64,000 bases of DNA from Gammaproteobacteria bacterium (GTDB lineage: Bacteria > Pseudomonadota > Gammaproteobacteria > SZUA-229): the NCBI GenBank assembly GCA_015488885.1, contig WFMW01000020.1, forward strand, positions 221-64,220. The letters are read 5' to 3'. The translations under genes were made by a program, and so were the position numbers. Positions 23,539-38,691 of this stretch are shown here, piece by piece (position 1 is the first letter of the stretch; each line of letters starts with the position of its first letter). The notes under the pieces are model-generated. The model did no database searches and was not told the origin of the DNA. It was given only the letters and a program-made list of their open reading frames with translations.

Positions 23539-23839
23539 CTCGCCTGTTTTATAGTGGCTAACTATAGCTGAGACAAGCCAGTATTATCCATATTACGACA
23601 TAATTGTCATAAAGTGACAAAAAAAAATCACTTTTTTTCTTCCATACTTCTTTGATTTTCACGTACTTACCGTCTATTTTATTAGTATTACAAAACTTTA
23701 CAAAAAATAACTAAAGTTTTTCTGCGGTTCTATCTGCAGTTCTAAATGTACTAAATCTTCCTTTGATGAAATGTCTGCAGCCATGTTGCCCGTTATGGTA
23801 ACTGCCTCTGTGGGTTGGTTGTGGCTATAAAAAATAATA

Positions 23840-25087
23840 ATGAAGCACAAAACAGAAATGAAAATCGGGATGGGGACTGATTTAATCACGCTATACATAC
23901 CCGTGAGGCAAATAAAATGGCTCTGCCATTGGCTAGCGGTATTCTTTCGATGTTGCTGGGTACTTTTTTGTCTGCTACAAACCTCAGAGGTTTTTGCAGC
24001 GGCAGGTGACAATATTACTAATATTGCAACCATAGATTACAAAATTGCCGGTGTTAAAGCGACAGCAACAGCCAGCACAAGTTTTATTGAAGATCGGCTA
24101 ATCAATTTTATCGTCAGTAAAATAAATGACGGTATTTATGATCCGGTTATTGCCGGGATGAATGGTGCGCTGATGAGTTTTTCGGTCCTGAATACGGGCA
24201 ATAGTAGCCAGGATTTTCTGCTGGCTGCCGTCAATACCACTCCTAACCCATTCTCATCCCTGACTGACAGCTTTAATGCACAGATACCAATGCGGGTCTT
24301 TGTTGAAAGCGGGGTCACGCCCGGTTATCAGGCTGCACAGGATACTGCCACCTATATTGATGAACTTGCACCCAATACCGCAATAACAGTCTATGTCGTC
24401 GCCAATATACCTGCCGGCCTGACAAACAATGAAGTAGCTGCGGTTGCTTTAATTGCTCAGGTTGCACAGGGAGGGCGTAGTGGTTCACAGGGTAATGTAA
24501 TCACTCATGACAGTAACGGGCATATCAGTCCAGCCAGTCCACCTTCAGGGTATAGCAATGGTGCTACCAGCGTTAGTGCTGGTAGCAGCCTGAATATACC
24601 CGACACAAATGGCATGGATACTGTCTTTAATGACCCTGCCGGCAAGGCAGCTGAAGATGTGAGCAGTTCACTGGTACAGGATATAGCTGCTAACGGTCAG
24701 CATGCTGATGCCGGGGCTTTTCGTGTTACTCCGCCGGTGTCCATCAAAAAAACAGTCACGGTGATTGATTCAACTGGAGGCAGTGATCCCCGCCCGGGAG
24801 CAATCTTACGTTATCAGCTGGATGTGACTGTGCTGGGTAACAATGAAGTTAATCATCTAGTGATTCATGATGATATCCCTGCCCATACCAGTTATACCGA
24901 TGCATCAATCAGCCTGAATGGTATCGCCCAGAGTGATGCGGATGATGCCCCGGTAGATTTCTCACGTGCCATCAACATCAACAGTAAACCGGTCACGGCT
25001 ATTGAAGTCGATCTGAGCCATGGTGGCTTTTCTCCGATACTACCGGGTGTCACCAATAAAATTATTTTTGAAGTAACCATTAACTGA
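23840..25087 (+). CDS. secreted DUF11 (TIGR01451 'conserved repeat domain') protein, paralog A
   Basis: Signal peptide ending …VFA|AAGDNITNIATIDYKIAGV. The start could alternatively be the GTG at 23903. C-terminal DUF11-type domain (VSIKKTVTV…RPGAILRYQLDVTVLGNNEVNHLVIHDDIPAHTSY). The mature N-terminus is shared with the gene at 25885 and with the giant gene. Confidence 0.75.
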   Translation: MKHKTEMKIGMGTDLITLYIPVRQIKWLCHWLAVFFRCCWVLFCLLQTSEVFAAAGDNITNIATIDYKIAGVKATATASTSFIEDRLINFIVSKINDGIYDPVIAGMNGALMSFSVLNTGNSSQDFLLAAVNTTPNPFSSLTDSFNAQIPMRVFVESGVTPGYQAAQDTATYIDELAPNTAITVYVVANIPAGLTNNEVAAVALIAQVAQGGRSGSQGNVITHDSNGHISPASPPSGYSNGATSVSAGSSLNIPDTNGMDTVFNDPAGKAAEDVSSSLVQDIAANGQHADAGAFRVTPPVSIKKTVTVIDSTGGSDPRPGAILRYQLDVTVLGNNEVNHLVIHDDIPAHTSYTDASISLNGIAQSDADDAPVDFSRAININSKPVTAIEVDLSHGGFSPILPGVTNKIIFEVTIN

Positions 25088-25098
25088 GGTAATAAAAA

Positions 25099-25608
25099 AT
25101 GCCAGGTAAATACATAAGTAACAAAACCATAAAAAATATTCTGTTAATAATATCACTTGGTGGTATGAGTCTGCATGCCTATGCCGGAAAAGGAGCCATT
25201 CAGTTTAGTAATAATGCATTTAAACAGATCATGACAACAGATAAAAAAGGCAATAAAAAAATCGATTATGTTAAACCTGATCTGGTCTTGCCGGGTGATG
25301 TGATTCTGTATCAGATTAAATTCAAAAACATCAGTCATCAGGTGGTTAGCAATATTGTTATTAATAACCCGGTTCCCAACAATTCAAAATACCGGTCAGG
25401 AAGTGCCGACAGTGAAAACAGTGTGGTGACTTTCTCAGTTGATGGGAAACATTTTAAAACAGCGAAACGGTTAACAGTAACAGATAAAACAGGCAGCTCG
25501 ATAATAGCGAAACCTGAGCAATATAAGGCCATTCGCTGGGTGTATAAAAAATCATTGAAACCGGATGAAACCGCCATGGTTTCCTACAAAACACAAATTA
25601 AAAAATAA
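25099..25608 (+). CDS. small secreted single-DUF11-domain protein
   Basis: 169 aa. Signal peptide (…SLHAYA) then one DUF11-like module (LVLPGDVILYQIKFKNISHQVVSNIVINNPVPNNSKY). Only 11 bp downstream of the preceding gene. Confidence 0.7.
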   Translation: MPGKYISNKTIKNILLIISLGGMSLHAYAGKGAIQFSNNAFKQIMTTDKKGNKKIDYVKPDLVLPGDVILYQIKFKNISHQVVSNIVINNPVPNNSKYRSGSADSENSVVTFSVDGKHFKTAKRLTVTDKTGSSIIAKPEQYKAIRWVYKKSLKPDETAMVSYKTQIKK

Positions 25609-25624
25609 CCTGACAGGCTATTTC

Positions 25625-25654
25625 TATGCGTAATTTTTCTATGCGTAATTTTTC
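25625..25654. repeat. tandem duplication of a 15-bp unit (tatgcgtaatttttc x2) just downstream of the small DUF11 gene
   Basis: Seen directly in the sequence. Confidence 0.9.
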
Positions 25655-25884
25655 AATAAGGGTAGCTGTTTACCTGCGGTTGAAGGTAAACATCAATCGT
25701 GTTTTTTATTCTGGTAATACGTCGTCTTTATCCACAGGTCCGCCACGGCATGCCGATTCACCGATGGACCTGTAAGGATTTCTTCTGAAATAAAAACGGG
25801 CAGGGGATGCCCGATAAAAATGAAAAAAATAATAACAGTTAACGTTTTAACCTCGATATGAGGCTTAACAAGAGGTAAGTAATA

Positions 25885-27201
25885 ATGAAAACAAGTACCA
25901 AGAACAGGCTTATTGGTCTGGCACTGGCAGGCAGTTTTGCGCTGTTAAATGCACCTGATGTACTCGCCGCCGCCGGTGATCCCATCAGTAATACCGCAAC
26001 ACTGGGTTACAAGGTTGGTGGTGTGACCCAAACGGTTATTGAATCGGGAACAGGAACGGGTAATTCTACACCGGGTGTCGGCAAGGGGACAGCAACCACG
26101 TTTAAGGAAGACCGTCTGGTTAACTTTACCGTAACGCGTGGTGGGGCAACGTCAAGTGCTACACCAGGTGGTTCTTTGCAGGTGGTGACATACACATTAA
26201 AAAATACCGGTAATGCGCCCCAGGGGTTTTTATTAAAGGGACTTAATAATGCCGATGCAACGGTCGATCCTTTTGGCGGTAGTGCCGATGTGTTTGATGC
26301 AGCAACGGTACAGACTTTTGTGGAAAGTGGTACCACACCAGGCTTTCAGTCTACACAGGATACGCAGGCCTATGTAGCGACCCTGGCGCCGAATACCACA
26401 AAGACAGTCTATGTGGTATCAACCCTGCCTACAACACGTACGGATGGTGTTACGGCACTGGTTAATGGTGATGTTGCGGTGATGTCATTAGTGGTACAGA
26501 TCGCCAAAAACAACACTACCGGTATTGCCGCGGATGCTATTGTTACCGATGATAACGGTCATGCCAGTCCCGGTGGTAGCGGCTTCAGCAATGGTAGCGT
26601 GTCGATTACTGCCGGAACGCCAGTGGCCGCAATTGCTGATGATCCTGCTACCGTGCAGACCGTATTTGGTGATGCGGCAGGAACCAAAGATGGTACTGGT
26701 GCAGCCGACACCGCCAGTAATGGTCAGGATTCAGATAATAGTTCCTATACGATTCAATCAGCATCGTTAACTGTTAAGAAGAGCTCGACTGCGTTATGGG
26801 ATCCGGTGAATTTGAATGCCAACCCTAAAGCGTTTCCTGGTGCTTATGTGCGTTACACCATCACCATTAGCAATGCGACTGGTACTGCGGCAGCTGATCT
26901 GACGACATTGTCTGATGTACTAACTAATGCTCTGGCTCTGGATCCAGACTTCGCTGATGGAAGCTCAGCAAATATCCCGACCATTGGTGCAGGTAAAGCG
27001 ATTCAGATAAGCAATGTCAGTCATGGCGTTACAAAATACTGTACTGGCGATATTGGCGATGCTGATGGGGATGGTTGTAAGTATAGCGGTGGTGCCGGTG
27101 GAACAGTCAGTGCCAATATCGCAACCCTGATGGGTGCGACTGATGCGAAACTGGCTGCTGGTGAATCATTGACGATCACCTTTAATGCCATTATGCAGTA
27201 A
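25885..27201 (+). CDS. secreted DUF11 protein, paralog B
   Basis: Signal peptide …VLA|AAGDPISNTATLGYKVGGV. Collinear similarity to the 23840 gene (e.g. FVESGTTPGFQSTQDTQAYVATLAPNTTKTVYVVSTLP vs FVESGVTPGYQAAQDTATYIDELAPNTAITVYVVANIP). C-terminal DUF11 module. Confidence 0.8.
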   Translation: MKTSTKNRLIGLALAGSFALLNAPDVLAAAGDPISNTATLGYKVGGVTQTVIESGTGTGNSTPGVGKGTATTFKEDRLVNFTVTRGGATSSATPGGSLQVVTYTLKNTGNAPQGFLLKGLNNADATVDPFGGSADVFDAATVQTFVESGTTPGFQSTQDTQAYVATLAPNTTKTVYVVSTLPTTRTDGVTALVNGDVAVMSLVVQIAKNNTTGIAADAIVTDDNGHASPGGSGFSNGSVSITAGTPVAAIADDPATVQTVFGDAAGTKDGTGAADTASNGQDSDNSSYTIQSASLTVKKSSTALWDPVNLNANPKAFPGAYVRYTITISNATGTAAADLTTLSDVLTNALALDPDFADGSSANIPTIGAGKAIQISNVSHGVTKYCTGDIGDADGDGCKYSGGAGGTVSANIATLMGATDAKLAAGESLTITFNAIMQ

Positions 27202-27408
27202 CGGCTGTTGCAACGCTTGATTAACATGCAGCAGGTAACAGGCAGACTATTCTCAGGCTGTCCGGGGTGTTTTACCCGGGCAGTTCTGTCTGTGTGTATT
27301 ATCTACCTGTATTATTGCTTAGTAACCATTCTGGCAGTAATTTTTAATCAATCATGCAACAAAAATAAAACGTCTTATACCGGTAATTGTATAAGGCGTT
27401 TTCTGCTA

Positions 27409-30400
27409 ATGTTCGACAACTACCAAACCGTCAGTCATTACCGGAAAACGTTAATAAAGTATCTAACCACATTCATTTGTCTATTAACCGGGTTTAATGT
27501 ATTTGCGATAACGCCACCTGGTACACTGATTAGCAATACCGCAACTGCCAGTTTTAATTATCTGGCTAATGCAGCAACCGCCAGCAGTAACACGGTAAAT
27601 GTAAGCAGTACCATTATTAAAACACCATCATCCATTCAGTTATATCAATACGCACCTGGTGGCGGTGAGATTGCTATTCCTGTTGTCACGCAATATGCAA
27701 ACAGTGGCTCAACCAGTGCCAGTTTTATTGTCTCCCCGGATCCACAGGTTCCTCAACCGGGTGCTGCACCTGTAACCATAAATCCACATACCCCAGTGGC
27801 TTTAAATAAAGTTAATGCCTACAGCACCGGCGAACCGGTATTTATACAGTTGACTGATAAGGATCAGAATTTAAACCCGGCACAGAAAGAAACCGTTACT
27901 CTCGAAGTGAGTAGTTCAGCGGGTGACAGGGAAGTGATTAAATTAACCGAAACCACCGTTAACAGCGGTGAGTTTAGCGGCTATATTCAATCGACAGCAA
28001 ACCCTGTCACCCAATATGACGGCTTATTAACCCTGGGCGAAGGCACTAAGGTAACGGCAAAATATACCGATAAATATGATAGTACAGATATAAGTATTGC
28101 CGATTCACAGGCCGATCCGTTTGGCCGGGTGTTCAGTAGTGTGGATGGCAGCTTGCAGAACGGAGCAGTGGTAACACTGTTTGATAGCAACGGTATTCCG
28201 GCCAGGGTATTTGGTGATGACGGGGTAAGCACTTTCAGTAATCCGGTTGTCACTGGTAGCACAGTAACCGATAGTGGTGGAACGATTTATCATTTTCCAG
28301 AAGGTGAATACCGTTTCCCGCGTCTTGCAGCCGGTCATTATATCTTGAAGGTGACACCACCACCAGGGTTTGCTGCGCCATCACAGAGCAATGAACAGGC
28401 ATTACAGAAACTTTCTGGTGCACCCTATGCGCTGGTTGCCAGTGCCTCATTTGCGCAATCCTTTAATCTTGTTGCCGGGCCGCCATTACATGTGGATATA
28501 CCCATTGACCCATTGACATCCATACTGGCGATTGAAAAAACTGCTGCAAAGGAAAATGTAGCCAGGGGTGAATTTGTTGCCTATACATTAAAACTGGATA
28601 ATATTGATGCTACTGCAGCATCGCATAATATTGTTGTCACCGATACTCTGCCACCGGGGTTACGTTATCAACGCGGTTCGGTTACTTATGACGGTACAGG
28701 TGGAAACGATCCGATTGTTTCCGCGGATGGGCGTACCCTGGCGTTTACTATCGGCTCACTGGCACCAAAATCTTCGACACAGATAAAGTATGTAACAGAA
28801 ATTACGGTTGCGACACCATTGGGCAAAGCAGTCAATCATGTGTTTGCAGAAGATGATCGGCACATAAAATCGAATACTGCATTAGCTGCTATTATGGTAA
28901 ACGAAGACTTATTTTCCAGCCATAGTTTTATTGCTGGACGTGTCATTGTCGGTGGTTGTAATACACAGAGTGTTACCGCTGATCCTGGATTGCCAGCAGC
29001 TCGTGTGTTAATGGAGGATGGTCGTTATGCGGTAACCGATGATAACGGGCGTTTTCATTTTGAAGGGATAACACCTGGCAGCCATGTTGTACAACTGGAT
29101 AAGGATAGCATTCCAGATAATTACCAGGTGATAGATTGTGTTAAAAACACTCGGTTTGCCGGTACCCCTTATTCACAGTTTGTTGATATCCAGGGTGGGT
29201 CACTATGGCGTACCGATTTTCATATTAAACAAAAGCCTCCCTTAATCGGCACCAGTTCTGTTTATATACAGAGTAACGTGACGGCTGAAAATAATATTCA
29301 ATACACAGTTAATATGCAGAATGGAAAAATACCGGTGAAAAATTATCGGTTAATTATTAATTTACCTGCAGGCATGACGTATATTCCAGCCAGCAGTCAG
29401 CTTGATGGGCATAATATAAAAGAACCTTATGTGAACGATAATATTCTCATTTATCGCCTCGGCGATCCTGGTAGTAACTGGCAGAAAAAACTGGTATTTC
29501 GTGGGCATGTAAAAAACGGGGCAGAGGGCGGTCTGATAACCACAGCAGTAGTTATGCTGGATACTTCATTGAAGAAAAATATTCGTTCAATACCCGTTAA
29601 AAATAAATTACAGGTGGAACCTGGTCATATTGATAAAAAATCCATTTCCTATCGCACCTACTTCGAACCCATGGGTGCTGCGCTATCCACTACATCAAGA
29701 AAGGATTTGCAGCTGGTAATAAAAAAACTGGGTGATGTACGTATCAGTCATAGTGAAGTAAAAGCTTATACGGATAATAAGCCAGTTAAACCCCGCAGCC
29801 AGTGGTTATATAAAAATAATAAAACCCTGTCGATGGCACGTGCCAGAGTGCTTGGCGATTATTTGACTAAAAAGTTAAATATAGATAAAAAAGCCATTAC
29901 CCTGATGCCGGAAGGTAGTAGCCACCCGTTAATGAAAAATGATTCCATGGAAGGTCGTGCCAGGAATCGTCGCGCCGATTTAATTTTACATACCAGTAAA
30001 ATTACCGATCCAGAAAAAATTGACCTGCTTCGTTCAAAAAGTGAGATAGGAAAAATAAACTTAAAGGGGCAGCCAAATTATAAAGGGGAACCAAATTATA
30101 AAGGGGAACCAAATTATAAAGGGGAACCAAATTATAAAGGGGAACCAAATTATAAAATCAATAAAAACTATAAAATCAATAAACTGATTGAAACGCCTGA
30201 TATTTCCCAGCAACGTGATATCAGTAATTTTGATGAGATATGGATAAAAACTCAGAAGCCGGGTTATAAATGGTTAATGCCGGATGTAAATTTTTCACCT
30301 TCGCAGTCTTCAGTCAATATTGCTATTAAACATAAACCTGCTGATCATTTTGAGATGCGCTTAAATGGTAAATTAATCAATCCGTTATTTTACTTTGGTG

Positions 30401-33342
30401 CAATAAAAAATAAACAGGGTACGGTTGCTCGTAGTTACTGGCAGGGGGTGTATTTGAATGCGGGAAATAATCACTTTGAATTTATAGTAAAGGACAATAA
30501 CGGTAAAGTTATTCGTCGTATGCAACGTGATATTGTGTTTGCTGGTGTTCCTGTGCGCGCACAACTGGCGGAGAAATATTCCCGTTTAATTGCTGATGGT
30601 CGTCATAGCCCGGTTATTGCCATAAAGGTATTTGATAAAAACGGCTTCCCGGCCAGGCCTGGTTCGCGCGGTAAATTCGCAGTAGCACCGCCATTCTTAC
30701 CACAACAGGAAGTTAAAGCGCTTCAGTTTAACCGTTTGTCAGGGCTGAATCGGAAACTGCCTGAATATGTTGTCGGGGCTAATGGGCTGGCATATATTGT
30801 GTTAGAGCCAACAACCACAACAGGTAAGGTGGATATAAAACTACCTTTTAGCGGACGTAGGAAAGTTCATATTCAAACCTGGTTGCAGCCTGAAGTACGC
30901 GACTGGGTGATGGTGGGGCTAGTAGAAGGGACAGCTGGATATAACCATATTTCGGGTCATCAGCAATCACCTGTCGGCAGCGATATAAAAGACGGTTATT
31001 ATAGCAATGGAAAAATGGCATTTTATGCTAAGGGAAGAATAAAAGGCAAATGGTTGTTAACTACAAAATACAATACATCAAAGCATCGTATCGCTGGTAA
31101 CAATCGACTTAATCAGTTAATTGATCCGAACACGTATTACACTATTTATGGTGATACTTCGCGCCAGCGTTTTGATGCCTCAAGTGCAGATAAACTGTAT
31201 ATAAAAATAGAGCGTGAAAAGTTTTATGCTTTATATGGCGATATGGATACCGGACTTAATGTCACCGATTTATCTAAATTTAGCCGACCTATGACCGGGT
31301 TTAAGTCAGCAGGTGATTTCAAAACATTATCTTATACAGCCTTTGCAGCAGAAAATAAAAATAACTTTGTTAAAGATGAAATACAGGGACAGGGAATTTC
31401 AGGTCTGTACCATCTGTCGGCCAGAAATATTACTATCAACAGTGATACCATTACCATTGAAACCCGTGATCGTTTTCGCAGTGAAATTATTCTTAATACA
31501 CAAACATTACGGCGTTATCTCGATTACACTATTGATTATCAGGCTGGAACCATTTACTTTCGGCACCCGATAGCAAGCCGTGATGAAAACTTTAACCCTG
31601 TTTTTATTGTTGCTGATTACGAAGTTGAAACCCCGGTAACAGGTGCTATAACCGCAGGTGGACGTGTTGCCGGTAAATTTGCCCAGGGTCGGCTTGACGT
31701 CGGTGGCAGTATTATCCATGATGGCAGTTATCAGGCAAAAGGTAATTTATATGGTGTTGATGCAAAAATTGAACTGGATAAGCAAACCGAAATAAAACTG
31801 GAAGTGGCAAGCAGTAAGGTTAATCACAGGCGTAAATCCGTAACCGGGAGTGCTTATTCCGCACAGATTGTCCATGGTGGTGACCGGCTTAAAGCTCGTG
31901 CCTATGCAAAATTACAGGATACAGATTTTGGCCTGGGGCAACAATCAATAAGTCAGTCTGGAACCAGGAAAATGGGTGTGGAAGGGAGTTACCAACTACA
32001 CGGGAATGCCTCACTAGATGCAACTTTTTATCATGAAAACAATCTGGCTACTGCGGCCAGTCGCAATGTTGCACAAACCGGTATTCGTTATGGTAATAAC
32101 AGCTACGCATTAAACGCAGGCGCAAAAATAGCCCATGATAAAGATAGCACTGGCAAAATCAGTGATTCAAATCTACTGATTCTGGGAGCCTCAAAAAATC
32201 TGCTGGATAATGTAATGAAACTGCACGGTGCAGCTGAAATTGCACTGGGCCAGAATAATGCCAACCCCGATCATCCATCACGTTATATTCTGGGGGCAGA
32301 TTATTTTGTTACACCTAAGGTTGATCTGTTTGCGGATAATGAGTGGACATTTGGCAAAAAACAGAACACCCAGATGAGTAAAGCCGGGCTGCGTTCGACC
32401 CCATGGACAGGCGCACAGCTGAACACTGCCATCAACCAGCAGAATAATGAAAATGGCATCCGTTCCTTTGCGACCATGGGTTTGACACAGTCATTCACGC
32501 TTAATAAACGTTGGAGTGGTGATGTGGCCATTGACCAGTCGAGAACGATACGTCATCCAGGTGCTAAACCGTTCTATAAAAATGTACCCATAGCACAGGG
32601 GGCGAAGGATGATTTTGTTGCGGTTTCGGTGGGTACTACCTATCATGCCGAAACGTATACCGTCAATGACCGGCTGGAATTTCGTCATGCCGACACCGAA
32701 AATAAAGTTGGTCTGCTGGCCAACTGGGAACATTATCTAAATCAGGGTACAGGCTATTCTGCCAGTACCAGACTGTTTCAGACGAAACGTGCTAATGGCA
32801 GCAAACTACTCGATGGTGATGTGCGCTTTTCACTTGCTTTTCGCCCACTGCTATCTGCGTGGATAGTATTTAACCGGCTGGATTTTAAATTTAATTCTAC
32901 AACAGATTTCACCGGTCTGACTAACCGCCAGCGAAAACTAATTGATAACCTTGCAGCCAATTATCTGGTCGATCAGCGTAATCAGCTGGCCTTTAATCTT
33001 GGCATAAAATACGTTGTTGATAATATCGATGCGAAAGAATATAACGCGATGACGTATCTATTTGGCAGTGAGTATCGTCACGACCTGAATGATCGGTTTG
33101 ACGCGGGTATTCATGCAAATGCCCTGTACTCAGCAAATTCATCGATATTGAAATATGCCAATGGTGTATCGCTGGGCTGGAATATGAAACGTAATATCTG
33201 GTTGAGCGTGGGTTACAATATCAGCGGTTTTGATGATAACGATTTTAGTGCAGCGGGTTACAGTGCACGCGGCCCCTATATCCGCTTTCGCATGAAATTT
33301 GATCAGGATACAGCAGCCAGTATTAAACACTGGCTTAATTAG
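27409..33342 (+). CDS. giant (~1980-2044 aa) cell-envelope protein: signal peptide, DUF11/CnaB-like repeats, OmpA-like peptidoglycan-binding domain, hexapeptide tandem repeats, ~1000-aa beta-rich C-terminal region
   Basis: The ORF track gives 27208..33342 with a TTG start. ATG 27409 is preferred because it yields a classical signal peptide (MFDNYQTVSHYRKTLIKYLTTFICLLTGFNVFA|ITPPGTLISNTATASFNY) and the same mature N-terminus as the two upstream paralogs. DUF11 motifs (…VAYTLKLDNIDATAASHNIVVTDTLPPGLRYQRGSVTYDG). A CnaB/prealbumin-like module (…ARVLMEDGRYAVTDDNGRFHFEGITPGSHVV). OmpA_C motif (…SMEGRARNRRADLIL). The C-terminus ends with an OMP-like amphipathic strand (YIRFRMKF) plus a short tail. 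Confidence 0.85.
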   Translation: MFDNYQTVSHYRKTLIKYLTTFICLLTGFNVFAITPPGTLISNTATASFNYLANAATASSNTVNVSSTIIKTPSSIQLYQYAPGGGEIAIPVVTQYANSGSTSASFIVSPDPQVPQPGAAPVTINPHTPVALNKVNAYSTGEPVFIQLTDKDQNLNPAQKETVTLEVSSSAGDREVIKLTETTVNSGEFSGYIQSTANPVTQYDGLLTLGEGTKVTAKYTDKYDSTDISIADSQADPFGRVFSSVDGSLQNGAVVTLFDSNGIPARVFGDDGVSTFSNPVVTGSTVTDSGGTIYHFPEGEYRFPRLAAGHYILKVTPPPGFAAPSQSNEQALQKLSGAPYALVASASFAQSFNLVAGPPLHVDIPIDPLTSILAIEKTAAKENVARGEFVAYTLKLDNIDATAASHNIVVTDTLPPGLRYQRGSVTYDGTGGNDPIVSADGRTLAFTIGSLAPKSSTQIKYVTEITVATPLGKAVNHVFAEDDRHIKSNTALAAIMVNEDLFSSHSFIAGRVIVGGCNTQSVTADPGLPAARVLMEDGRYAVTDDNGRFHFEGITPGSHVVQLDKDSIPDNYQVIDCVKNTRFAGTPYSQFVDIQGGSLWRTDFHIKQKPPLIGTSSVYIQSNVTAENNIQYTVNMQNGKIPVKNYRLIINLPAGMTYIPASSQLDGHNIKEPYVNDNILIYRLGDPGSNWQKKLVFRGHVKNGAEGGLITTAVVMLDTSLKKNIRSIPVKNKLQVEPGHIDKKSISYRTYFEPMGAALSTTSRKDLQLVIKKLGDVRISHSEVKAYTDNKPVKPRSQWLYKNNKTLSMARARVLGDYLTKKLNIDKKAITLMPEGSSHPLMKNDSMEGRARNRRADLILHTSKITDPEKIDLLRSKSEIGKINLKGQPNYKGEPNYKGEPNYKGEPNYKGEPNYKINKNYKINKLIETPDISQQRDISNFDEIWIKTQKPGYKWLMPDVNFSPSQSSVNIAIKHKPADHFEMRLNGKLINPLFYFGAIKNKQGTVARSYWQGVYLNAGNNHFEFIVKDNNGKVIRRMQRDIVFAGVPVRAQLAEKYSRLIADGRHSPVIAIKVFDKNGFPARPGSRGKFAVAPPFLPQQEVKALQFNRLSGLNRKLPEYVVGANGLAYIVLEPTTTTGKVDIKLPFSGRRKVHIQTWLQPEVRDWVMVGLVEGTAGYNHISGHQQSPVGSDIKDGYYSNGKMAFYAKGRIKGKWLLTTKYNTSKHRIAGNNRLNQLIDPNTYYTIYGDTSRQRFDASSADKLYIKIEREKFYALYGDMDTGLNVTDLSKFSRPMTGFKSAGDFKTLSYTAFAAENKNNFVKDEIQGQGISGLYHLSARNITINSDTITIETRDRFRSEIILNTQTLRRYLDYTIDYQAGTIYFRHPIASRDENFNPVFIVADYEVETPVTGAITAGGRVAGKFAQGRLDVGGSIIHDGSYQAKGNLYGVDAKIELDKQTEIKLEVASSKVNHRRKSVTGSAYSAQIVHGGDRLKARAYAKLQDTDFGLGQQSISQSGTRKMGVEGSYQLHGNASLDATFYHENNLATAASRNVAQTGIRYGNNSYALNAGAKIAHDKDSTGKISDSNLLILGASKNLLDNVMKLHGAAEIALGQNNANPDHPSRYILGADYFVTPKVDLFADNEWTFGKKQNTQMSKAGLRSTPWTGAQLNTAINQQNNENGIRSFATMGLTQSFTLNKRWSGDVAIDQSRTIRHPGAKPFYKNVPIAQGAKDDFVAVSVGTTYHAETYTVNDRLEFRHADTENKVGLLANWEHYLNQGTGYSASTRLFQTKRANGSKLLDGDVRFSLAFRPLLSAWIVFNRLDFKFNSTTDFTGLTNRQRKLIDNLAANYLVDQRNQLAFNLGIKYVVDNIDAKEYNAMTYLFGSEYRHDLNDRFDAGIHANALYSANSSILKYANGVSLGWNMKRNIWLSVGYNISGFDDNDFSAAGYSARGPYIRFRMKFDQDTAASIKHWLN
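30066..30191. repeat. seven in-frame 18-bp tandem units (GQPNYK, GEPNYK x4, INKNYK x2). Four GEPNYK units are nucleotide-identical.
   Basis: The unit gggcagccaaattataaa is followed by ggggaaccaaattataaa repeated four times, then atcaataaaaactataaa twice. Confidence 0.95.
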
Positions 33343-33529: not shown

Positions 33530-33576
33530 TATTGATTTATCTATTGATTTATCTATTAATTCATATCTATTAATTT
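33530..33576. promoter_or_regulatory. AT-rich direct repeats (tattgatttatc x2, tattaatt x2) about 30-80 bp upstream of the qmoA-like start; candidate operator/promoter element
   Basis: Direct repeats seen in the sequence. Their position relative to the operon start suggests a regulatory role. No consensus match is claimed. Confidence 0.3.
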
Positions 33577-33608
33577 AAACCTGACACAAGATCCTTTGGA
33601 GGAATAAG

Positions 33609-34895
33609 ATGTCGGATATCGTTGCAACCAATCAGACTATTCTGGTTGTCGGTGGTGGCATTAGCGGCATGACGGCTGCATTAGAAGCTGCTGAAATCGG
33701 CAAACAGGTCATCGTCATTGAAAAATCACCATCAATCGGCGGTCGAGTGACCAGGCTCTATAAATATTTCCCTAAATTATGTTTTCCGACCTGTGGTCAG
33801 GAAATTAATCAACGGCGTATGGCGGCTAATCCGAACATCACTGTGCTGACCATGGCCGAAGTCACCGATCTGCAGGGCGATGCCGGAAATTATACGGCAA
33901 CAGTAAAAATCAGCCCGCGTTATGTGAATGCAAACTGTACGGCCTGCGGTGATTGTGCCAGTGTTGTCGAAGCGGAGCTTGATGACCCTCACAATTATAA
34001 TATGAGCAAACACAAAGGCGCTTATCTGCCACATAATATGGCGATGCCAAAACGTTATGTGCTGGCACCGGAAATTATTGCTACCGATGATGCCGAAAAA
34101 GCCAAAGCAGCCTGCAAATTTGATGCCATTGATCTCGATATGCAGGAAGAGACACTGGAACTGAAAGCCGGTGCTGTGGTCTGGGCAACAGGCTGGCGTC
34201 CATTTGATGCCGCAAAAATACAGCCCTATGGTTATGACCGCATTGATAATGTAATTTCCAGCGTTGAGTTTGAACGTATGATGGATCCATTTGGCCCTAC
34301 TGGCGGTAAACTGGTTCGTCCTTCCGATGGTAAAGAGGCTAAAAATATCGCCTTTATTCAATGTGCTGGTTCACGTGACCGTAATTACCTGAAACACTGC
34401 TCACGCATCTGCTGCATGGCCTCTTTGAAACAGAGTACCTATGTCACCGAAAAATTTGGCGATGAAGCCGATGTCAGCATTTATTATATTGATATTCGCG
34501 CCATTGACCGGTTTGATAATTTTTATCAACGGGTTAAGGAAAATCCCAACGTCACCTTTATCAAGTCGAAAGTGGCGAATATTGTCGAAAATAAAAAGAA
34601 CGGGAATCCGGTTCTTAACGGGGTTAATGTAGAAGGTTATCATCGTTATGCCAATGAACATGACATGGTGGTACTGGCCGTGGGTATGCAACCGAGTGTG
34701 GATAAAAACGCATTCCCGATAGAACTTAAATTAAACGATGAAGGTTTCATTGAAAGTGATGAAGCCAATGGTGGTATCTTTGCGGCAGGCTGTTCAGCGG
34801 ATGCGCTCGATGTGAATCGCGCCGTCCAGAGTGCAACCGCATCTGCATTAAAAGCCATTCAGGTTGTTAATCGTGTAGCACAGGCGGAGGGTTAA
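33609..34895 (+). CDS. HdrA-like FAD flavoprotein, QmoA-type
   Basis: 428 aa. N-terminal FAD fold (VVGGGISGMTAALEAAE). HdrA cysteine signature C-x-G-x-R-D-x6-C-S-x2-C-C (IQCAGSRDRNYLKHCSRICCMAS). No ferredoxin or MvhD domain, i.e. the QmoA architecture. Confidence 0.8.
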   Translation: MSDIVATNQTILVVGGGISGMTAALEAAEIGKQVIVIEKSPSIGGRVTRLYKYFPKLCFPTCGQEINQRRMAANPNITVLTMAEVTDLQGDAGNYTATVKISPRYVNANCTACGDCASVVEAELDDPHNYNMSKHKGAYLPHNMAMPKRYVLAPEIIATDDAEKAKAACKFDAIDLDMQEETLELKAGAVVWATGWRPFDAAKIQPYGYDRIDNVISSVEFERMMDPFGPTGGKLVRPSDGKEAKNIAFIQCAGSRDRNYLKHCSRICCMASLKQSTYVTEKFGDEADVSIYYIDIRAIDRFDNFYQRVKENPNVTFIKSKVANIVENKKNGNPVLNGVNVEGYHRYANEHDMVVLAVGMQPSVDKNAFPIELKLNDEGFIESDEANGGIFAAGCSADALDVNRAVQSATASALKAIQVVNRVAQAEG

Positions 34896-34898
34896 ACG

Positions 34899-37154
34899 AT
34901 GGCTGATGAAAAGAAGATAGCTGTTGAAAAGAAGATTGGTGCTTATATCTGTAATGGATGTGGCATTGGTGAACGTCTGGATTCCAGCCAGCTGGAAACA
35001 ACAGCTAAACGTGATGGCAAAGCCGCTATCTGCCAGCAACATGATTTTTTATGTTCCGAAGCGGGTGTAAAAATGATTCAGGATGATATCGATAATGAAG
35101 GCGTCAATCGTGTGGTTATTGCCGCCTGTTCACGACGGGCGAAAACCGAAGCCTTTGCCTTCAAAGATGTGGTCGTTATTCGTAGCAACCTGCGTGAAGG
35201 TGTTATCTGGGTGCGGCCTGATGAAGATGATCAGCGTGAAACCACGCAGGAAATGGCTGACGACTATATCCGCATGGGTTGTGCTGAAGCAAAATATGCC
35301 AATATACCTTCAGCCAGTGGCCAGCAGAGTGTGAATAAAAATATTCTGATTGCCGGTGGTGGTATTTCTGGTATGACCGCCGCGCTGGAAGCATCCAAAG
35401 CCGGTTATCCCTGTACGATAGTCGAGAAATCTTCGGCACTCGGTGGTGCAACGGCACAGCTGTATAAAAAGATTCCAACCAGAGCGCCTTATGCCGACCC
35501 GGAAGATACCGGTGTTGATGCAATGATTGCTGCCGTCGAAGCGGATAGCAATATTACTGTTTTTCTGAATTCAACCTTAACCAATACAGCAGGTGCACCG
35601 GGTCGCTTCACTGCCGACATTAGTACCGAAAGTGGTAGCACCGAAACAAAAGAATTTGGTGCGATTGTTCAGGCATCGGGTTTCACCCCTTATGATGCGA
35701 ATAATTTACCCGAATTTGCCTACGGTAAAAATAAAGATGTGGTCACCCAGATGGAACTGGAAGCCCTGGCTAAAACGGCCAATGGTGGTGCCATTAAACG
35801 TCCATCCGATGGTAAGGAAGTATCCAGTGTATTATTTATTCAATGTGCCGGTCAACGCAGCACGAAGGCAGGACATTTAGAGCACTGTTCCGGTTATTGT
35901 TGCAGTGCGTCCATCAAGGAAGCCATGTACTTTAAAGATCAGAATACTGCTATTGATACCACTGTGTTATATACCGACTTACGTACACCGGGTGCCGGTG
36001 GTGAAAACTTTTACCGTAGCGGGCAAAACAAAGGCGTTATATTTACCAAAGGTATTGCCTCAGAAGTTGTCGATGGGGCTAACCCGACCGTTAAGTTCAA
36101 GGATTTAATTCTTGATGAAGACGTGAGTATGGAGGTTGACCTGGTGGTGCTGGCGACAGGAATGGTGGCTAATGCTGGTCAGCCAACACGTGCTGAAATT
36201 ACCCTTAGCGAAAATGAAGCCAAGGAAGCGGGCACAGAATATAAAGTCTCGGTCGAATCCATATTGAATCTGGATTATCGTCAGGGTAAAGATGTGCCGC
36301 ATATGACAAACGGTTTTGCGGATTCACATTTTATCTGTTTCCCTTATGAAACCCAGCGTACCGGTATTTATACTGCTGGCCCCACCCGTCGCCCTATGGA
36401 TACCAGACAGGCGATGGACGATGCAACCGGTGCTGCAATGAAAGCTATATCCGAAGCGGAAAATGCAGGCCTGGGTAAAGCCGCGCATCCACGTGTTGCA
36501 GATCTGAGTTTCCCCAGTTTCCGTCAGGAAGGTTGCACCCAGTGTAAACGTTGCACGGTTGAATGCCCGTTCGGTGCTATCAATGAAACGGAAGATGGTT
36601 ATCCAGAGTTTAATGAATCACGTTGTCGTCGTTGCGGCACCTGTATGGGCGCCTGTCCGGTAAGGGTGATTTCATTTGAAAACTATTCTATTGATACTGT
36701 CGGGCAACAGTTGAAAGCGGTGGATATTCCTGATGAATTTGATGAAAAACCGCGTATTCTGGTGCTTGCCTGTGAGAATGATGCTTATCCGGCTCTGGAT
36801 ATGGCAGCACAAAATCGGCTTGAATACAGTGCCTTTACCCGTATTATTCCGGTTCGTTGTCTGGGGTCAGTCAGTTTAAGCTGGATTACCGATTCCATGA
36901 ACAGCGGTTATGATGGTGTCATTTTAATGGGTTGTCCGAGTGGTGATGATTATCAGTGTCACTTTGTGAAAGGTTCAGCCATGGCGCAGGAACGGATGAG
37001 TAAAGTGGGGGATACACTGGAAACCTTAAGTCTGGAAAAAGAACGTGTACAGACTTATGAAATATCCATTACCGATATTCAGAAAGTTCCACAGTTAATT
37101 AATGAAATGGCCGAAACCATCGAGAAGATTGGTATGAGCCCATTCAAGTTTTAG
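34899..37154 (+). CDS. HdrA-like flavoprotein fused to two [4Fe-4S] ferredoxin motifs and a C-terminal MvhD-like domain, QmoB-type
   Basis: 751 aa. Second FAD fold (IAGGGISGMTAALEASK). HdrA signature (IQCAGQRSTKAGHLEHCSGYCCSAS). CTQCKRCTVECP and CRRCGTCMGACP. MvhD/FlpD-like C-terminus (ILVLACENDAYPALD…IPVRCLGSV…DGVILMGCPSGDDYQCHFVKG). Confidence 0.82.
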   Translation: MADEKKIAVEKKIGAYICNGCGIGERLDSSQLETTAKRDGKAAICQQHDFLCSEAGVKMIQDDIDNEGVNRVVIAACSRRAKTEAFAFKDVVVIRSNLREGVIWVRPDEDDQRETTQEMADDYIRMGCAEAKYANIPSASGQQSVNKNILIAGGGISGMTAALEASKAGYPCTIVEKSSALGGATAQLYKKIPTRAPYADPEDTGVDAMIAAVEADSNITVFLNSTLTNTAGAPGRFTADISTESGSTETKEFGAIVQASGFTPYDANNLPEFAYGKNKDVVTQMELEALAKTANGGAIKRPSDGKEVSSVLFIQCAGQRSTKAGHLEHCSGYCCSASIKEAMYFKDQNTAIDTTVLYTDLRTPGAGGENFYRSGQNKGVIFTKGIASEVVDGANPTVKFKDLILDEDVSMEVDLVVLATGMVANAGQPTRAEITLSENEAKEAGTEYKVSVESILNLDYRQGKDVPHMTNGFADSHFICFPYETQRTGIYTAGPTRRPMDTRQAMDDATGAAMKAISEAENAGLGKAAHPRVADLSFPSFRQEGCTQCKRCTVECPFGAINETEDGYPEFNESRCRRCGTCMGACPVRVISFENYSIDTVGQQLKAVDIPDEFDEKPRILVLACENDAYPALDMAAQNRLEYSAFTRIIPVRCLGSVSLSWITDSMNSGYDGVILMGCPSGDDYQCHFVKGSAMAQERMSKVGDTLETLSLEKERVQTYEISITDIQKVPQLINEMAETIEKIGMSPFKF

Positions 37155-37163
37155 GAGTCTTCC

Positions 37164-37781
37164 ATGAGTAATCTTAATACCGGCATGGTTGAAAAATACC
37201 GCAATAATTTCCTTAACGAAGTTGAGGCCAATGTTGAAGAAGGTGAATGGGTAAAAATGTGTATGCAGTGTGGTGTGTGCTCAGGCTCATGCCCACTTGG
37301 TCCATACTGGGATCATCCACCTCAGGAACTGTTTATGATGATTCGTGCAGGCAAGCGCGAAGAAGTTCTTGAATCAACATCAATGTGGATGTGTACCTCC
37401 TGCTATAACTGTCTGGTACGTTGTCCTCGTGAGTTGCCTATTACCCATATCATGCATGGGCTGGCGCATTATGCTACGCGTCTGGGTATCGAACCCAAAG
37501 GTCAGCCTACCCGGCAGTTTGCCCAGTTATTCTGGGATAATCTGGCTAAAAATGGCCGTGTCAATGAGCTTTGGTTAGGCGTGAATCTGTATTTCATGAA
37601 CGGTTTTGTCAATGGCATTAAAGTAGCCATGGGAATGGCGGGTATTGGTCTTGGTATGTATAAATCGGGCAGGCTGAGTATTAAAGAACTGATTGGTGGT
37701 CACACAGTTAAAGACAAGAGCGGCTTTAAAGCAATGATCAAAAAAGCACAGGAGCTGGAATCAGCTCGTGTAGACAAATAA
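37164..37781 (+). CDS. heterodisulfide reductase subunit C-like (2x[4Fe-4S])
   Basis: 205 aa with CMQCGVCSGSCP and CTSCYNCLVRCP motifs. Starts 10 bp after the upstream gene. Confidence 0.8.
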   Translation: MSNLNTGMVEKYRNNFLNEVEANVEEGEWVKMCMQCGVCSGSCPLGPYWDHPPQELFMMIRAGKREEVLESTSMWMCTSCYNCLVRCPRELPITHIMHGLAHYATRLGIEPKGQPTRQFAQLFWDNLAKNGRVNELWLGVNLYFMNGFVNGIKVAMGMAGIGLGMYKSGRLSIKELIGGHTVKDKSGFKAMIKKAQELESARVDK

Positions 37782-37794
37782 GGCAGGTATAGTA

Positions 37795-38691
37795 ATGTCA
37801 AAAGAATATTCATTTTATCCGGGTTGTTCCTCACAGGAAGGTGCATCTTCCTCGAATTATCTGAAGTCCGTCCAGTCTATGTGTGATGTGCTGGACATTA
37901 AACTTAACGTGATTCCAGACTGGAACTGCTGTTCTGCATCCATCGGTTATTGTGGTGGTGGTGAATTACCCCGACTGGCCCTGTCAGCACGTAATATCGC
38001 ACTTTCAGAAAAGCATAATCAGGGGCAGGATATTGTTGCTACCTGTGCCGCCTGCTGGTTAGCTACCAAAGAAACCCAGGAACGTCTGGATGATGATGCT
38101 GGATTAATGGATGAAACTAATCAGGCACTGGCCGAAGCAGGTCTGAAAATTGAAAATAAAACCAAAATTCGTCACATGGTTGAGGTGTTAATTGAAGACA
38201 TCGGCTATGAAGAAATGGGCAAACATGTCAGCAAACCTCTGGACGGCATTAAAATAGCCGGTTATGTAGGTTGCCAGACTAATCGTCCATTCGGTATTGA
38301 AGGTGAGTCGTTTGAAAATCCTAAATATCTGGATAAATTTATTGAAACTCTGGGGGCTGAGCCGGTTGAAAAATACGACAAAAAAGTGTCCTGCTGCGGC
38401 GGTGCACTGGCATTCTCCGAACCGGAAAAATCTCAGGCATTGATTAAAGACATTATTGAAGCCGCCTACGATGGTGGTGCAGATATGATTGTTACGCCGT
38501 GTCCGGTCTGTCAGATGAATGTCGAAGTGTATCAGGATAAGATTAATGCTACCTATGGTACTAAATTTAATATGCCGGTTACCTATTACAGCACCCTGAT
38601 GTCAGTCGCCTACGGTAAAAACAGCAAGCAGTCTGGTCTGAACGGGCAGATTATTAAAGCTAAAAAACTCGAGGAAGTTGCCAGTAAGTAA
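37795..38691 (+). CDS. heterodisulfide reductase subunit B-like (two CCG cysteine-rich domains)
   Basis: 298 aa with two Cys…CC…CxxC modules (GCSS…NCCSAS…ATCAAC and VGCQTN…SCCGGALAF…PCPVCQ). Confidence 0.8.
   Translation: MSKEYSFYPGCSSQEGASSSNYLKSVQSMCDVLDIKLNVIPDWNCCSASIGYCGGGELPRLALSARNIALSEKHNQGQDIVATCAACWLATKETQERLDDDAGLMDETNQALAEAGLKIENKTKIRHMVEVLIEDIGYEEMGKHVSKPLDGIKIAGYVGCQTNRPFGIEGESFENPKYLDKFIETLGAEPVEKYDKKVSCCGGALAFSEPEKSQALIKDIIEAAYDGGADMIVTPCPVCQMNVEVYQDKINATYGTKFNMPVTYYSTLMSVAYGKNSKQSGLNGQIIKAKKLEEVASK

Follow-up and report, generated by a model that had tools for sequence, protein, structure and literature searches.

A 64,000-nucleotide stretch of gammaproteobacterial DNA from contig WFMW01000020.1 (the whole stretch is hereafter called the window; its overall GC content is 44.6%) contains four consecutive genes, here named A to D, whose products probably build a self-contained, modular fibre or stalk at the cell surface. 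On the reading that we favour, with some reserve, from sequences and structural models, the subunits would be joined through an isopeptide domain that is split between proteins and then locked, and the assembly would stand on the giant protein D as its outer-membrane anchor. A more far-reaching proposal, which we put forward tentatively, is that the locus represents a new class of pilus of outer-membrane bacteria in which naturally split CLIPPER subunits polymerise without chaperone, usher or sortase. Such a fibre would be fully covalent, and its base subunit would carry a barrel of about 30 strands of its own for translocation and anchoring and would be stapled to peptidoglycan. The class would extend over at least 500 species from at least five phyla.

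The four open reading frames lie head to tail on the + strand. Gene A (23840-25087) encodes a pilin-like subunit of 415 amino acids (aa) if read from the first ATG, with an alternative and possibly true start at the ATG at 23870. Gene B (25099-25608) encodes a protein of 169 aa with a single CLIPPER-like domain that is predicted to be secreted, and gene C (25885-27201) encodes a second pilin-like subunit of 438 aa, which is a paralog of A. Gene D (27208-33342) encodes the giant, putative anchor protein, of 2044 aa from a TTG at 27208 or 1977 aa from the ATG at 27409; residue numbers of D refer to the 1977-aa form throughout. Sec signal peptides are plausible on all four products, and their ends, read by eye from the sequence, are ..VFA/AAGD in A, ..AYA/GKG in B, ..VLA/AAGD in C and ..VFA/ITPPG in D.

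Family searches place the proteins among the DUF11 repeats. At cut-offs of 24.6 bits for PF01345, 24 bits for TIGR01451 and 27.2 bits for PF00691, D matches DUF11/PF01345 (46 bits), TIGR01451 (60.6 bits) and the OmpA family PF00691 (41 bits), with further weak matches to the transthyretin-like CarboxypepD_reg and SdrD_B families. TIGR01451 is also matched by A (26.0 bits) and B (27.8 bits), neither of which reaches the Pfam cut-off for DUF11. C has no direct family match, is 35% identical to A across 348 aa (E 5e-50), and its C-terminal domain matches the DUF11 domain of D with a profile-profile probability of 97%. A preliminary description of this DNA, made from the letters alone, had listed four same-strand genes for Sec-exported DUF11 proteins, and its coordinates and domain assignment are confirmed by these matches. 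It had also called the domains CnaB-like, which needs correction. DUF11 has since been renamed CLIPPER, and the crystal structure PDB 9IFR shows a nine-strand, CnaA-like fold with an autocatalytic isopeptide bond between Lys715 and Asn806, for which Asp748 is catalytic (PMC12617251). A complete nine-strand domain with Lys (on β1), Asp and Asn (on β8) together is found inside D and in none of A, B and C.

A and C end in a shortened CLIPPER-like domain, B consists of one, and all three stop at a common point. When aligned by hhalign to the complete 137-position CLIPPER of D, A covers positions 1-101 (probability 97.5%), C covers positions 1-101 (97%) and B covers positions 1-102, with probabilities of 96-98% overall, and all three polypeptides terminate where the alignment ends, at position ~101/102 of 137. 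What is absent is a segment of about 35 residues comprising β8, which bears the Asn, and β9, so that each chain stops at the β7/β8 loop. The acceptor domain of A (residues 294-415, 24719-25084, + strand) contains Lys304 and Asp344 and ends with FEVTIN at the stop codon, before the Asn strand; that of C (residues 288-438, 26746-27198, + strand) contains the invariant Lys299 and Asp344 and ends with FNAIMQ, again before the Asn strand. Among pilin homologs the Lys (K299 in C, K304 in A) is kept in 106 of 109 and the Asp (D344 in both) in all 109, and these residues correspond to the Lys715/Asp748/Asn806 triad of 9IFR, except that the Asn is located at the N-terminus of the protein instead. As to the checks proposed at the outset for an incomplete Ig fold and for isopeptide triads, the C-terminal domains of A and C are incomplete by profile alignment, and Lys, Asp and an invariant N-terminal Asn are all present. 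B stops at the same point and has neither a conserved donor nor a conserved Lys, and its Asp position is occupied by Asn in 43 of 56 homologs.

The segment with the Asn lies just behind the signal peptides, where A, C and D have the common motif G-T/D-x-I-x-N-T-A. In A the donor segment spans residues 54-96 (23999-24127, + strand; AAGDNITNIATIDYKIAGV...TSFIEDR), includes the conserved Asn61 and is matched by a donor hidden Markov model (HMM) with an E of 5e-17. The donor hairpin of C spans residues 29-85 (25969-26139, + strand; AAGDPISNTATLGYKVGGV...TATTFKEDRLVNF) with Asn36, Phe73 and Asp76 invariant, Asn36 being so across the whole C family. That of D follows directly after the signal peptide at residues 34-75 (27508-27633, + strand; ITPPGTLISNTATASFNY...SNTVNVSSTII), with Asn43 and Asn61 near-invariant in the consensus of 68 giants and a donor HMM E of 3.5e-20. 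The distance from the cleavage site to the motif is 7-12 residues in homologs from several phyla, about 110 of them pilin-like and 68 giants, with the consensus xAxxTAAGTxIxNTATxxYxVGG...TxFxVD in the pilin-like proteins and AxTPPGTxIxNTAxAxF...SNTV in the giants. Comparison of N-terminal profiles gives a probability of 96% (E 4e-9) for A against D and 92% (E 7e-7) for C against D, and by this measure the mature N-termini of A, C and D are homologous rather than alike by chance. Outside the motif no similarity between D and A or C is detectable. The shared mature N-terminus of the preliminary description is thus real, but it is a conserved motif and not the near-identical segment that had been claimed.

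Coevolution in 198 A and C sequences gives some idea of the fold of this segment. The antiparallel ladder 30-77/33-74/35-72/37-70, in which 37-70 is the top-scoring pair in the protein, indicates that the N-terminal strand forms a hairpin with the strand bearing Phe73 and Asp76, and a further coupling places residue 47 in contact with residue 307 of the acceptor domain. The method was mean-field direct coupling analysis with an effective sequence number of 149, and its signal is noisy beyond the hairpin ladder. Clusters of couplings involving positions 62, 187, 253 and 392 seem to be driven by insertions and deletions and were not used.

The N-termini of A, C and D resemble the β8-β9 pair missing from the acceptors, with modest statistical support. 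The consensus of the β7-β9 region within D is YVTEIT/AAGTRLGKAVNTAVA..GG..SSNTAS..TEDLF, where the slash marks the breakpoint. The pilins end with the equivalent of the YVTEIT strand (FNAIMQ in C and FEVTIN in A), and their mature forms start with AAG(D/T)xIxNTAT..GG....TxFxED, so that a pilin C-terminus and the mature N-terminus of a second pilin, placed in line, read like a continuous CLIPPER domain. An HMM of β8-β9 scores D donors at 5.5, compared with -0.4 (standard deviation 3.8) for shuffled ones, and pilin donors at 2.9. In artificial fusions of acceptor and donor the Pfam DUF11 alignment runs past the junction to profile position 97 and gains 2 to 5 bits, and joining B to the donor of D raises the DUF7619 score from 14.7 to 24.9 bits, covering positions 19-129 of 133. 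Ten isolated donor peptides gave no match in Pfam, a result of little weight given that they are too short and that several have approximate terminal residues.

The distribution of the two halves among proteins is what argues for exchange between chains. Donor and acceptor are both present in 113 pilin-like proteins. In 69 giants the donor is present and the sole conserved Lys/Asp pair (K377, D412) sits in a complete CLIPPER domain with an Asn of its own (N476), while 59 B proteins have an acceptor-shaped domain and no conserved donor. A fourth type consists of 28 accessory proteins of 600-2582 aa whose genes adjoin the operon elsewhere, among them L001:16357-18195, L003:3709-6807 and L037:4800-6917. 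They are made up of a signal peptide, a head that is large and variable, in some cases complete CLIPPER domains, and at the C-terminus a shortened acceptor ending ...SFTLRFRVRVQ, with no donor; in the 26 distinct acceptor domains that were aligned, the Lys is kept in 25 and the Asp in 25. From their architecture they look like tip adhesins, and no such head gene is encoded within the window. Because a Lys/Asp pair is kept in proteins without an Asn strand, and an Asn hairpin is kept in proteins without an open acceptor, we infer that domains are completed by hairpins from other proteins.

D itself is a stalk followed by an OmpA-like domain and a barrel. Behind the donor hairpin lies an N-terminal β domain and a SdrD_B/transthyretin-like domain (residues 76-372, 27634-28524, + strand; the matches to SdrD_B and CarboxypepD_reg are weak), and the family alignment has no invariant Lys before K377. 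The complete CLIPPER/DUF11 domain follows at residues 373-491 (28525-28881, + strand), with the triad Lys377, Asp412 and Asn476 and a SNTALA strand, and after it family searches place a CarboxypepD_reg-like domain together with another complete CLIPPER-like domain, which lacks the isopeptide residues (28900-29649, + strand). The OmpA-like peptidoglycan-binding domain occupies residues 751-854 (29659-29970, + strand; PF00691 at 41 bits). Against OmpA-like domains in the PDB the D-family profile gives a best E of 2.6e-19, with others to 1e-15, and the positions N804, R811, R850, N853, R854 and R855 are invariant, so that the residues contacting peptidoglycan are kept and binding is predicted. 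Two Ig-like domains (residues 954-1161, 30268-30891, + strand; pLDDT ~85-93 in an AlphaFold2 (AF2) model) precede a β-rich region of lower confidence (30907-31560, + strand; pLDDT 32-80 in parts) that may be a plug or extra barrel strands.

The C-terminus of D is predicted to form an outer-membrane β-barrel (31597-33300, + strand) of about 30-32 long antiparallel strands, with a conserved terminal GPYIRFRMKFDQ motif and then a short helix. The model covers the C-terminal 1038 residues, was built from a 63-sequence alignment and has a pLDDT of 77. This agrees with the earlier suggestion that the giant is the outer-membrane anchor or platform. No Pfam family matches the barrel, and its best structural match is SlpA (7zgx, 8bym), at 11% identity and at the level of the fold only. 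Searches of PDB sequences, and profile searches, with C, D and the C-family and D-family profiles found the OmpA-like domain only, and nothing for the pilins or the barrel. The donor hairpin and barrel are present in every D homolog examined, and the OmpA-like domain is missing in some. We suppose that the barrel would anchor the structure and give passage, and that the OmpA-like domain would pass load to the cell wall.

Some smaller features of D vary among homologs. The homologs that lack the OmpA-like domain, among them P0047, P0050, P0065, P0074 and P0092, retain the donor hairpin, stalk and barrel, and others have extra cadherin-like or duplicated stalk modules and reach 3026 aa. In D the OmpA-like domain is joined to the pre-barrel Ig domains by a low-complexity linker with five GEPNYK repeats (30052-30183, + strand), encoded by 18-bp tandem repeats (5.2 copies, 97% matches), which is likely to be a spacer of variable length. 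Upstream of the ATG of the signal peptide the D reading frame continues for 67 codons (27208-27408). D homologs are annotated with a similar N-terminal extension of 60-70 aa, semi-conserved at a small number of positions (G, C, LP, W), and this region is either a translated, extended signal region or an artefact of choosing the longest reading frame.

We propose the following route of assembly. The proteins would first be exported by Sec, after which the donor hairpin of one would enter the open acceptor of another by donor-strand complementation, and a Lys-Asn isopeptide bond would form autocatalytically and lock the joint. Since the donor seems to supply the Asn-bearing hairpin that a split isopeptide domain lacks, the joints are probably covalent. 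D, with a donor hairpin and no open acceptor, would stand at the base, its barrel in the outer membrane and, in this lineage, its OmpA-like domain tied to peptidoglycan. A and C would take positions along the chain, and proteins that have only an acceptor would be distal: B in this locus, or in many other genomes a large head resembling a tip adhesin. B has the shape of an acceptor without the Lys and Asp, so that its hold on a donor would be non-covalent, and our guess is that it serves as a cap or as a periplasmic holding factor. The product would be either a defined B-A-C-D stalk, an order that coincides with the order of the genes, or a long polymer. It would resemble the beads-on-a-string array of a fibrillar adhesin with tandem CLIPPER domains, built here of separate polypeptides.

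Relatives of the operon are widespread. With one genome per species searched, relatives of D are encoded in the genomes of 501 species. Full-length homologs of D of about 2000 aa number more than 200, none with a functional name. Neighbourhoods were taken from the best 80 loci of the 501 species. The order pilin-like, B-like, pilin-like, giant on one strand is found in 43 of the 48 loci with sufficient upstream DNA, a set that covers Gammaproteobacteria, Desulfobacterota, Nitrospirota, Eisenbacteria, Krumholzibacteria and Rhodospirillales. The 80 loci belong to Thiotrichaceae and other Gammaproteobacteria (58-66% identity, probably the lineage of the source), Steroidobacteraceae, Desulfobacterota, Nitrospirota, Eisenbacteria, Krumholzibacteria and Rhodospirillales, and the Desulfobacterota include two cultured organisms, Desulfosudis oleivorans Hxd3 and Geomobilimonas luticola JCM 17780. 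The flanks of the operon vary by lineage, and those of the 80 loci contain no recurrent gene of an assembly type, the only recurrent families being housekeeping genes of one clade (mutL, miaA, hflX, hflKC and ligT); a hidden fifth assembly gene was considered and rejected on this ground. In one clade, represented by L004 and about 20 other gammaproteobacterial loci, the operon is fixed between an amiB-type amidase/tsaE and ligT-mutL-miaA-hfq-hflX-hflKC, which is unlike the hda/qmo site in the window and in L021.

Several observations weigh against a fibre made by exchange between chains. In hhalign comparisons the donors do not match the C-terminus of the D CLIPPER significantly (E 0.02 to 0.18), the β8-β9 HMM scores them just 1 to 1.5 standard deviations above shuffles, and the acceptor-donor fusions all stay below the Pfam gathering score. 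The AF2 monomer model of C is all-β, compact and confident (pLDDT 92, predicted template modelling score (pTM) 0.81), as it would also be if the protein were completed by its own hairpin; such monomer models self-complement by construction. Foldseek comparison of this model with the PDB returned generic tandem-Ig matches only (integrin legs, antigen I/II, RrgB, SafDAA and CupB6, at TM < 0.3), which do not help in choosing between completion within and between proteins. A, B and C would still need a way across the outer membrane, putatively through the barrel of D. The OmpA-like domain of D stands between stalk and barrel and should be periplasmic, so the N-terminal stalk must either remain periplasmic itself or be threaded through the barrel.

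The compact model of C would also fit the alternative that A and C are circularly permuted monomers, in which the hairpin completes the CLIPPER domain of its own chain, the Lys-Asn bond is intramolecular and no fibre is formed. D would then be a tether between outer membrane and peptidoglycan of the SlpA/OmpM kind with a stalk, and A, B and C would act beside it as separate Ig-like monomers of the surface or periplasm. Coevolution is blind to the difference between contacts within and between chains, the CLIPPER isopeptides described to date are intramolecular (PMC12617251), and self-complementation is known for FimA-type pilins (PMC6615685). Nevertheless we consider this alternative rather unlikely, as D has a donor with a conserved Asn and yet no spare acceptor or conserved Lys to go with it, the 28 accessory proteins retain the acceptor Lys and Asp with a donor nowhere in the protein, and B stops at the same point without a donor. 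With donors and acceptors distributed in this way, the partner must come from another protein at least in the case of D, B and the accessory proteins.

In a second alternative a covalent chain of A, C and D would form but lie beneath the outer membrane, as a mechanically strong strut that connects the barrel with peptidoglycan, by way of OmpA, and perhaps with the inner membrane. A periplasmic stalk is the simplest topology for an OmpA-like domain between stalk and barrel, SlpA, the best structural match of the barrel, is a tether from outer membrane to cell wall, and the locus does not encode a dedicated secretion component. We nevertheless judge a periplasmic staple of this kind improbable, because CLIPPER domains typically occur in fibrillar adhesins of the cell surface (PMC12617251), the accessory heads are large, variable (600-2582 aa) and similar to tip adhesins, a barrel of about 30 strands far exceeds the needs of a mere anchor, and some D homologs have no OmpA-like domain at all. 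The remaining alternative is an ordinary adhesin locus, with D as an autotransporter-like or OmpA-anchored adhesin, A, B and C as unrelated small DUF11 paralogs, and the shared N-terminus as mere paralogy. A and C are indeed paralogous, proteins with DUF11 are common, and a CLIPPER adhesin of Acinetobacter silvestris is known to have an OmpA-like anchor (PMC12617251). This explanation is nonetheless largely refuted, and we give it very little credence: the N-terminal motif is all that D has in common with A and C, yet the position of that motif relative to the signal peptide is fixed across phyla, the order of the genes is kept in 43 of 48 loci, and D has no match to autotransporters, two-partner secretion or the type I and type IX secretion systems (T1SS and T9SS), its barrel having about 30 strands as opposed to 12-16. 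None of the findings named beforehand as refuting the preliminary interpretation turned up: DUF11 modules are present, the homologs are not solitary, and the motif keeps its position even in D, which outside it is not a paralog of A or C.

If the fibre is real, its closest parallels are found in systems of several different origins. In the chaperone-usher pili (Fim, Pap and the archaic Csu/CupE) an incomplete Ig fold and an N-terminal donor extension are analogous to what we find here, where the step between proteins is deduced from sequence and the fold family is unrelated. It is the G strand that is missing there, and a two-strand, Asn-bearing hairpin of a CnaA-like domain that is missing here; in addition the joints are here predicted to be covalent, and the base subunit itself includes a barrel of about 30 strands. 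The proposed roles of the head or B, of A and C, and of D would mirror the tip, shaft and terminator logic of those pili. Neither a PapD-like chaperone (PF00345/PF02753) nor an usher (PF00577) was found in the four proteins or their neighbours with Pfam and NCBIfam, or recurrently in the 80 loci.

Exchange of a donor followed by an isopeptide lock has precedents. The archaeal threads of Saci_0406 combine donor-strand complementation by an N-terminal tail with intermolecular isopeptide bonds (PMC9715654). They resemble the present system in having no dedicated sortase and a conserved motif directly after the Sec cleavage site, and differ in an unrelated fold, in a bond that runs from the N-terminal α-amine of Asp24 to Asn57 of subunit n+2 (PMC9715654), and in hosts that are archaea, without an outer membrane or barrel anchor. 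In the 'exchange and lock' assembly of Clostridium perfringens BsaA, a member of the TasA family, an N-terminal segment enters the β sheet of the next monomer and an autocatalytic isopeptide bond forms, and polymerisation of its paralog BsaB is limited (10.1101/2024.11.04.621531). BsaA has a TasA-type jelly-roll and not a CLIPPER fold, is Gram-positive, and depends on SipW and type IV pilus genes. The likeness of our system to the threads and BsaA would rest on the pattern of conservation and the distribution of modules. Closest in domain family are the CLIPPER adhesins, which have the same Lys/Asp/Asn triad, such as A. silvestris B9T28_05395 (PDB 9IFR), an adhesin that has an OmpA-like anchor as well (PMC12617251). 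They are single giant polypeptides with intramolecular bonds, whereas here the array seems to have been cut into genes at the β7/β8 loop, and the bond would link one protein to another.

Covalent fibres of Ig domains are also made by the sortase-assembled pili of Gram-positive bacteria. The C-termini of A, B and C (...FEVTIN, ...TQIKK and ...FNAIMQ) contain no LPXTG or pilin motif, and no sortase is encoded in the neighbourhood within the window. SpyTag/SpyCatcher is an engineered split CnaB2 domain that reconstitutes and ligates spontaneously. Its chemistry is that proposed here, with the difference that it is man-made and the present split would be a natural one, in bacteria with an outer membrane. 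The type V pili of Bacteroidota (FimA/Mfa1) are similar in exchanging strands without chaperone or usher and in having an outer-membrane anchor subunit, and differ in being lipoproteins processed by an Arg/Lys protease, with a C-terminal donor strand and non-covalent links; no lipobox Cys was found at +1 in A, B or C (VFA/AAG, AYA/GKG and VLA/AAG, read from the sequence). Compared with SlpA of Deinococcus radiodurans and other OmpM-type tethers (7zgx, 8bym), D has an OmpA-like domain in place of SLH and adds a 740-residue stalk of Ig domains with an N-terminal donor hairpin. The 12-16-strand translocator barrels of autotransporters and other type V secretion systems (T5SS; PF03797, ShlB/POTRA) are not matched by D, whose barrel has about 30 strands. 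Searches of Pfam and NCBIfam did not find the T9SS markers Por_Secre_tail or TIGR04183/TIGR04131, and the hosts are Pseudomonadota, Desulfobacterota and Nitrospirota rather than Bacteroidota.

The protein families and the outer-membrane component appear to be undescribed, and literature searches returned no description of this operon. The idea of an undescribed cell-surface assembly system gains support, also from the gene order in the 43 of 48 loci, and the statement that the locus encodes no chaperone, usher, sortase, T5SS or T9SS component holds here, with no gene of an assembly type recurrent in the flanks of the 80 loci. If the proposal is right, covalent Ig-domain fibres made without sortase would extend beyond Gram-positive bacteria and archaea, and outer-membrane bacteria would have an unrecognised, minimal four-gene route to a pilus or adhesin that needs Sec and presumably the β-barrel assembly machinery only. 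It would be a case of natural split-isopeptide ligation in which A, C, D, B and the accessory heads provide several orthogonal donor/acceptor pairs, and protein engineers would have a direct interest in it. The 30-strand barrels joined to the base of a fibre are a family for which Pfam has no model and no relative has been solved, and they would amount to a new outer-membrane machine. The hosts include sulfur-oxidising Thiotrichaceae, sulfate and metal reducers, and Nitrospirota, in which such fibres may matter for attachment, aggregation or filament sheaths. These organisms are environmentally important and poorly tractable, and the two cultured hosts make the system testable.

The middle domains of the pilin-like proteins have a further feature. 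A is laid out as signal peptide, donor hairpin, middle β domain and C-terminal shortened CLIPPER-like acceptor, and the layout of C is the same. The middle domain of C (residues ~80-262) has an invariant polar cluster (D76, N107, N110 and D135) and no conserved Lys, and the equivalent region of A has N118, N121 and D168. From these residues the cluster may bind a metal instead of forming another isopeptide.

The surroundings of the locus agree with the preliminary description in part. Upstream are purN, purM, a DUF2066 gene and hda, and downstream are two HdrA-like flavoproteins (one with an MvhD/FlpD domain), a 4Fe-4S protein and a CCG-domain protein, which form a Qmo/Hdr-type set, so that the neighbours had been named correctly. 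The downstream set lies at 33609-38691 and encodes a QmoA-like protein (428 aa), a QmoB-like protein (751 aa, with the MvhD/FlpD domain), the 4Fe-4S protein and the HdrB-like CCG-domain protein, a set that fits a sulfur-oxidising host of the Thiotrichaceae type; the operon in L021 is followed by the same genes. The locus had been taken for an inserted accessory module, a view that the present data do not bear out. Its GC content of 43.7% agrees with that of the flanks and is no anomaly beside the 44.6% of the window, and L021, the closest relative with long flanks, has purN-purM-DUF2066-hda and qmo/hdr flanks identical to those of the window, which argues against a recent insertion. The AT-rich, non-coding leader between hda and gene A (23539-23839) is present as described, with 33% GC, and measures 301 bp instead of about 360 bp.

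A promoter scan returned exactly the number of sites expected by chance, and a terminator scan returned 16 terminator-like sites where 9.6 were expected (standard deviation 2.8), none of them informative. The B-C intergenic region (25609-25884, 276 bp, 39% GC) contains, at 25621-25654 and 25660-25710, a perfect 15-bp tandem duplication, TTTCTATGCGTAATT, and a hairpin, GTTTACC...GGTAAAC, followed by a run of T. Judged from this sequence, the hairpin and T-run might cause partial termination of transcription after B. C has a strong ribosome-binding site of its own (AAGAGG) at the end of this region. Finally, the 266-bp spacer between D and the qmo genes, with 32% GC, includes at 33530-33577 an AT-rich 12-bp tandem repeat, TATTAATTTATC, in 3.8 copies.

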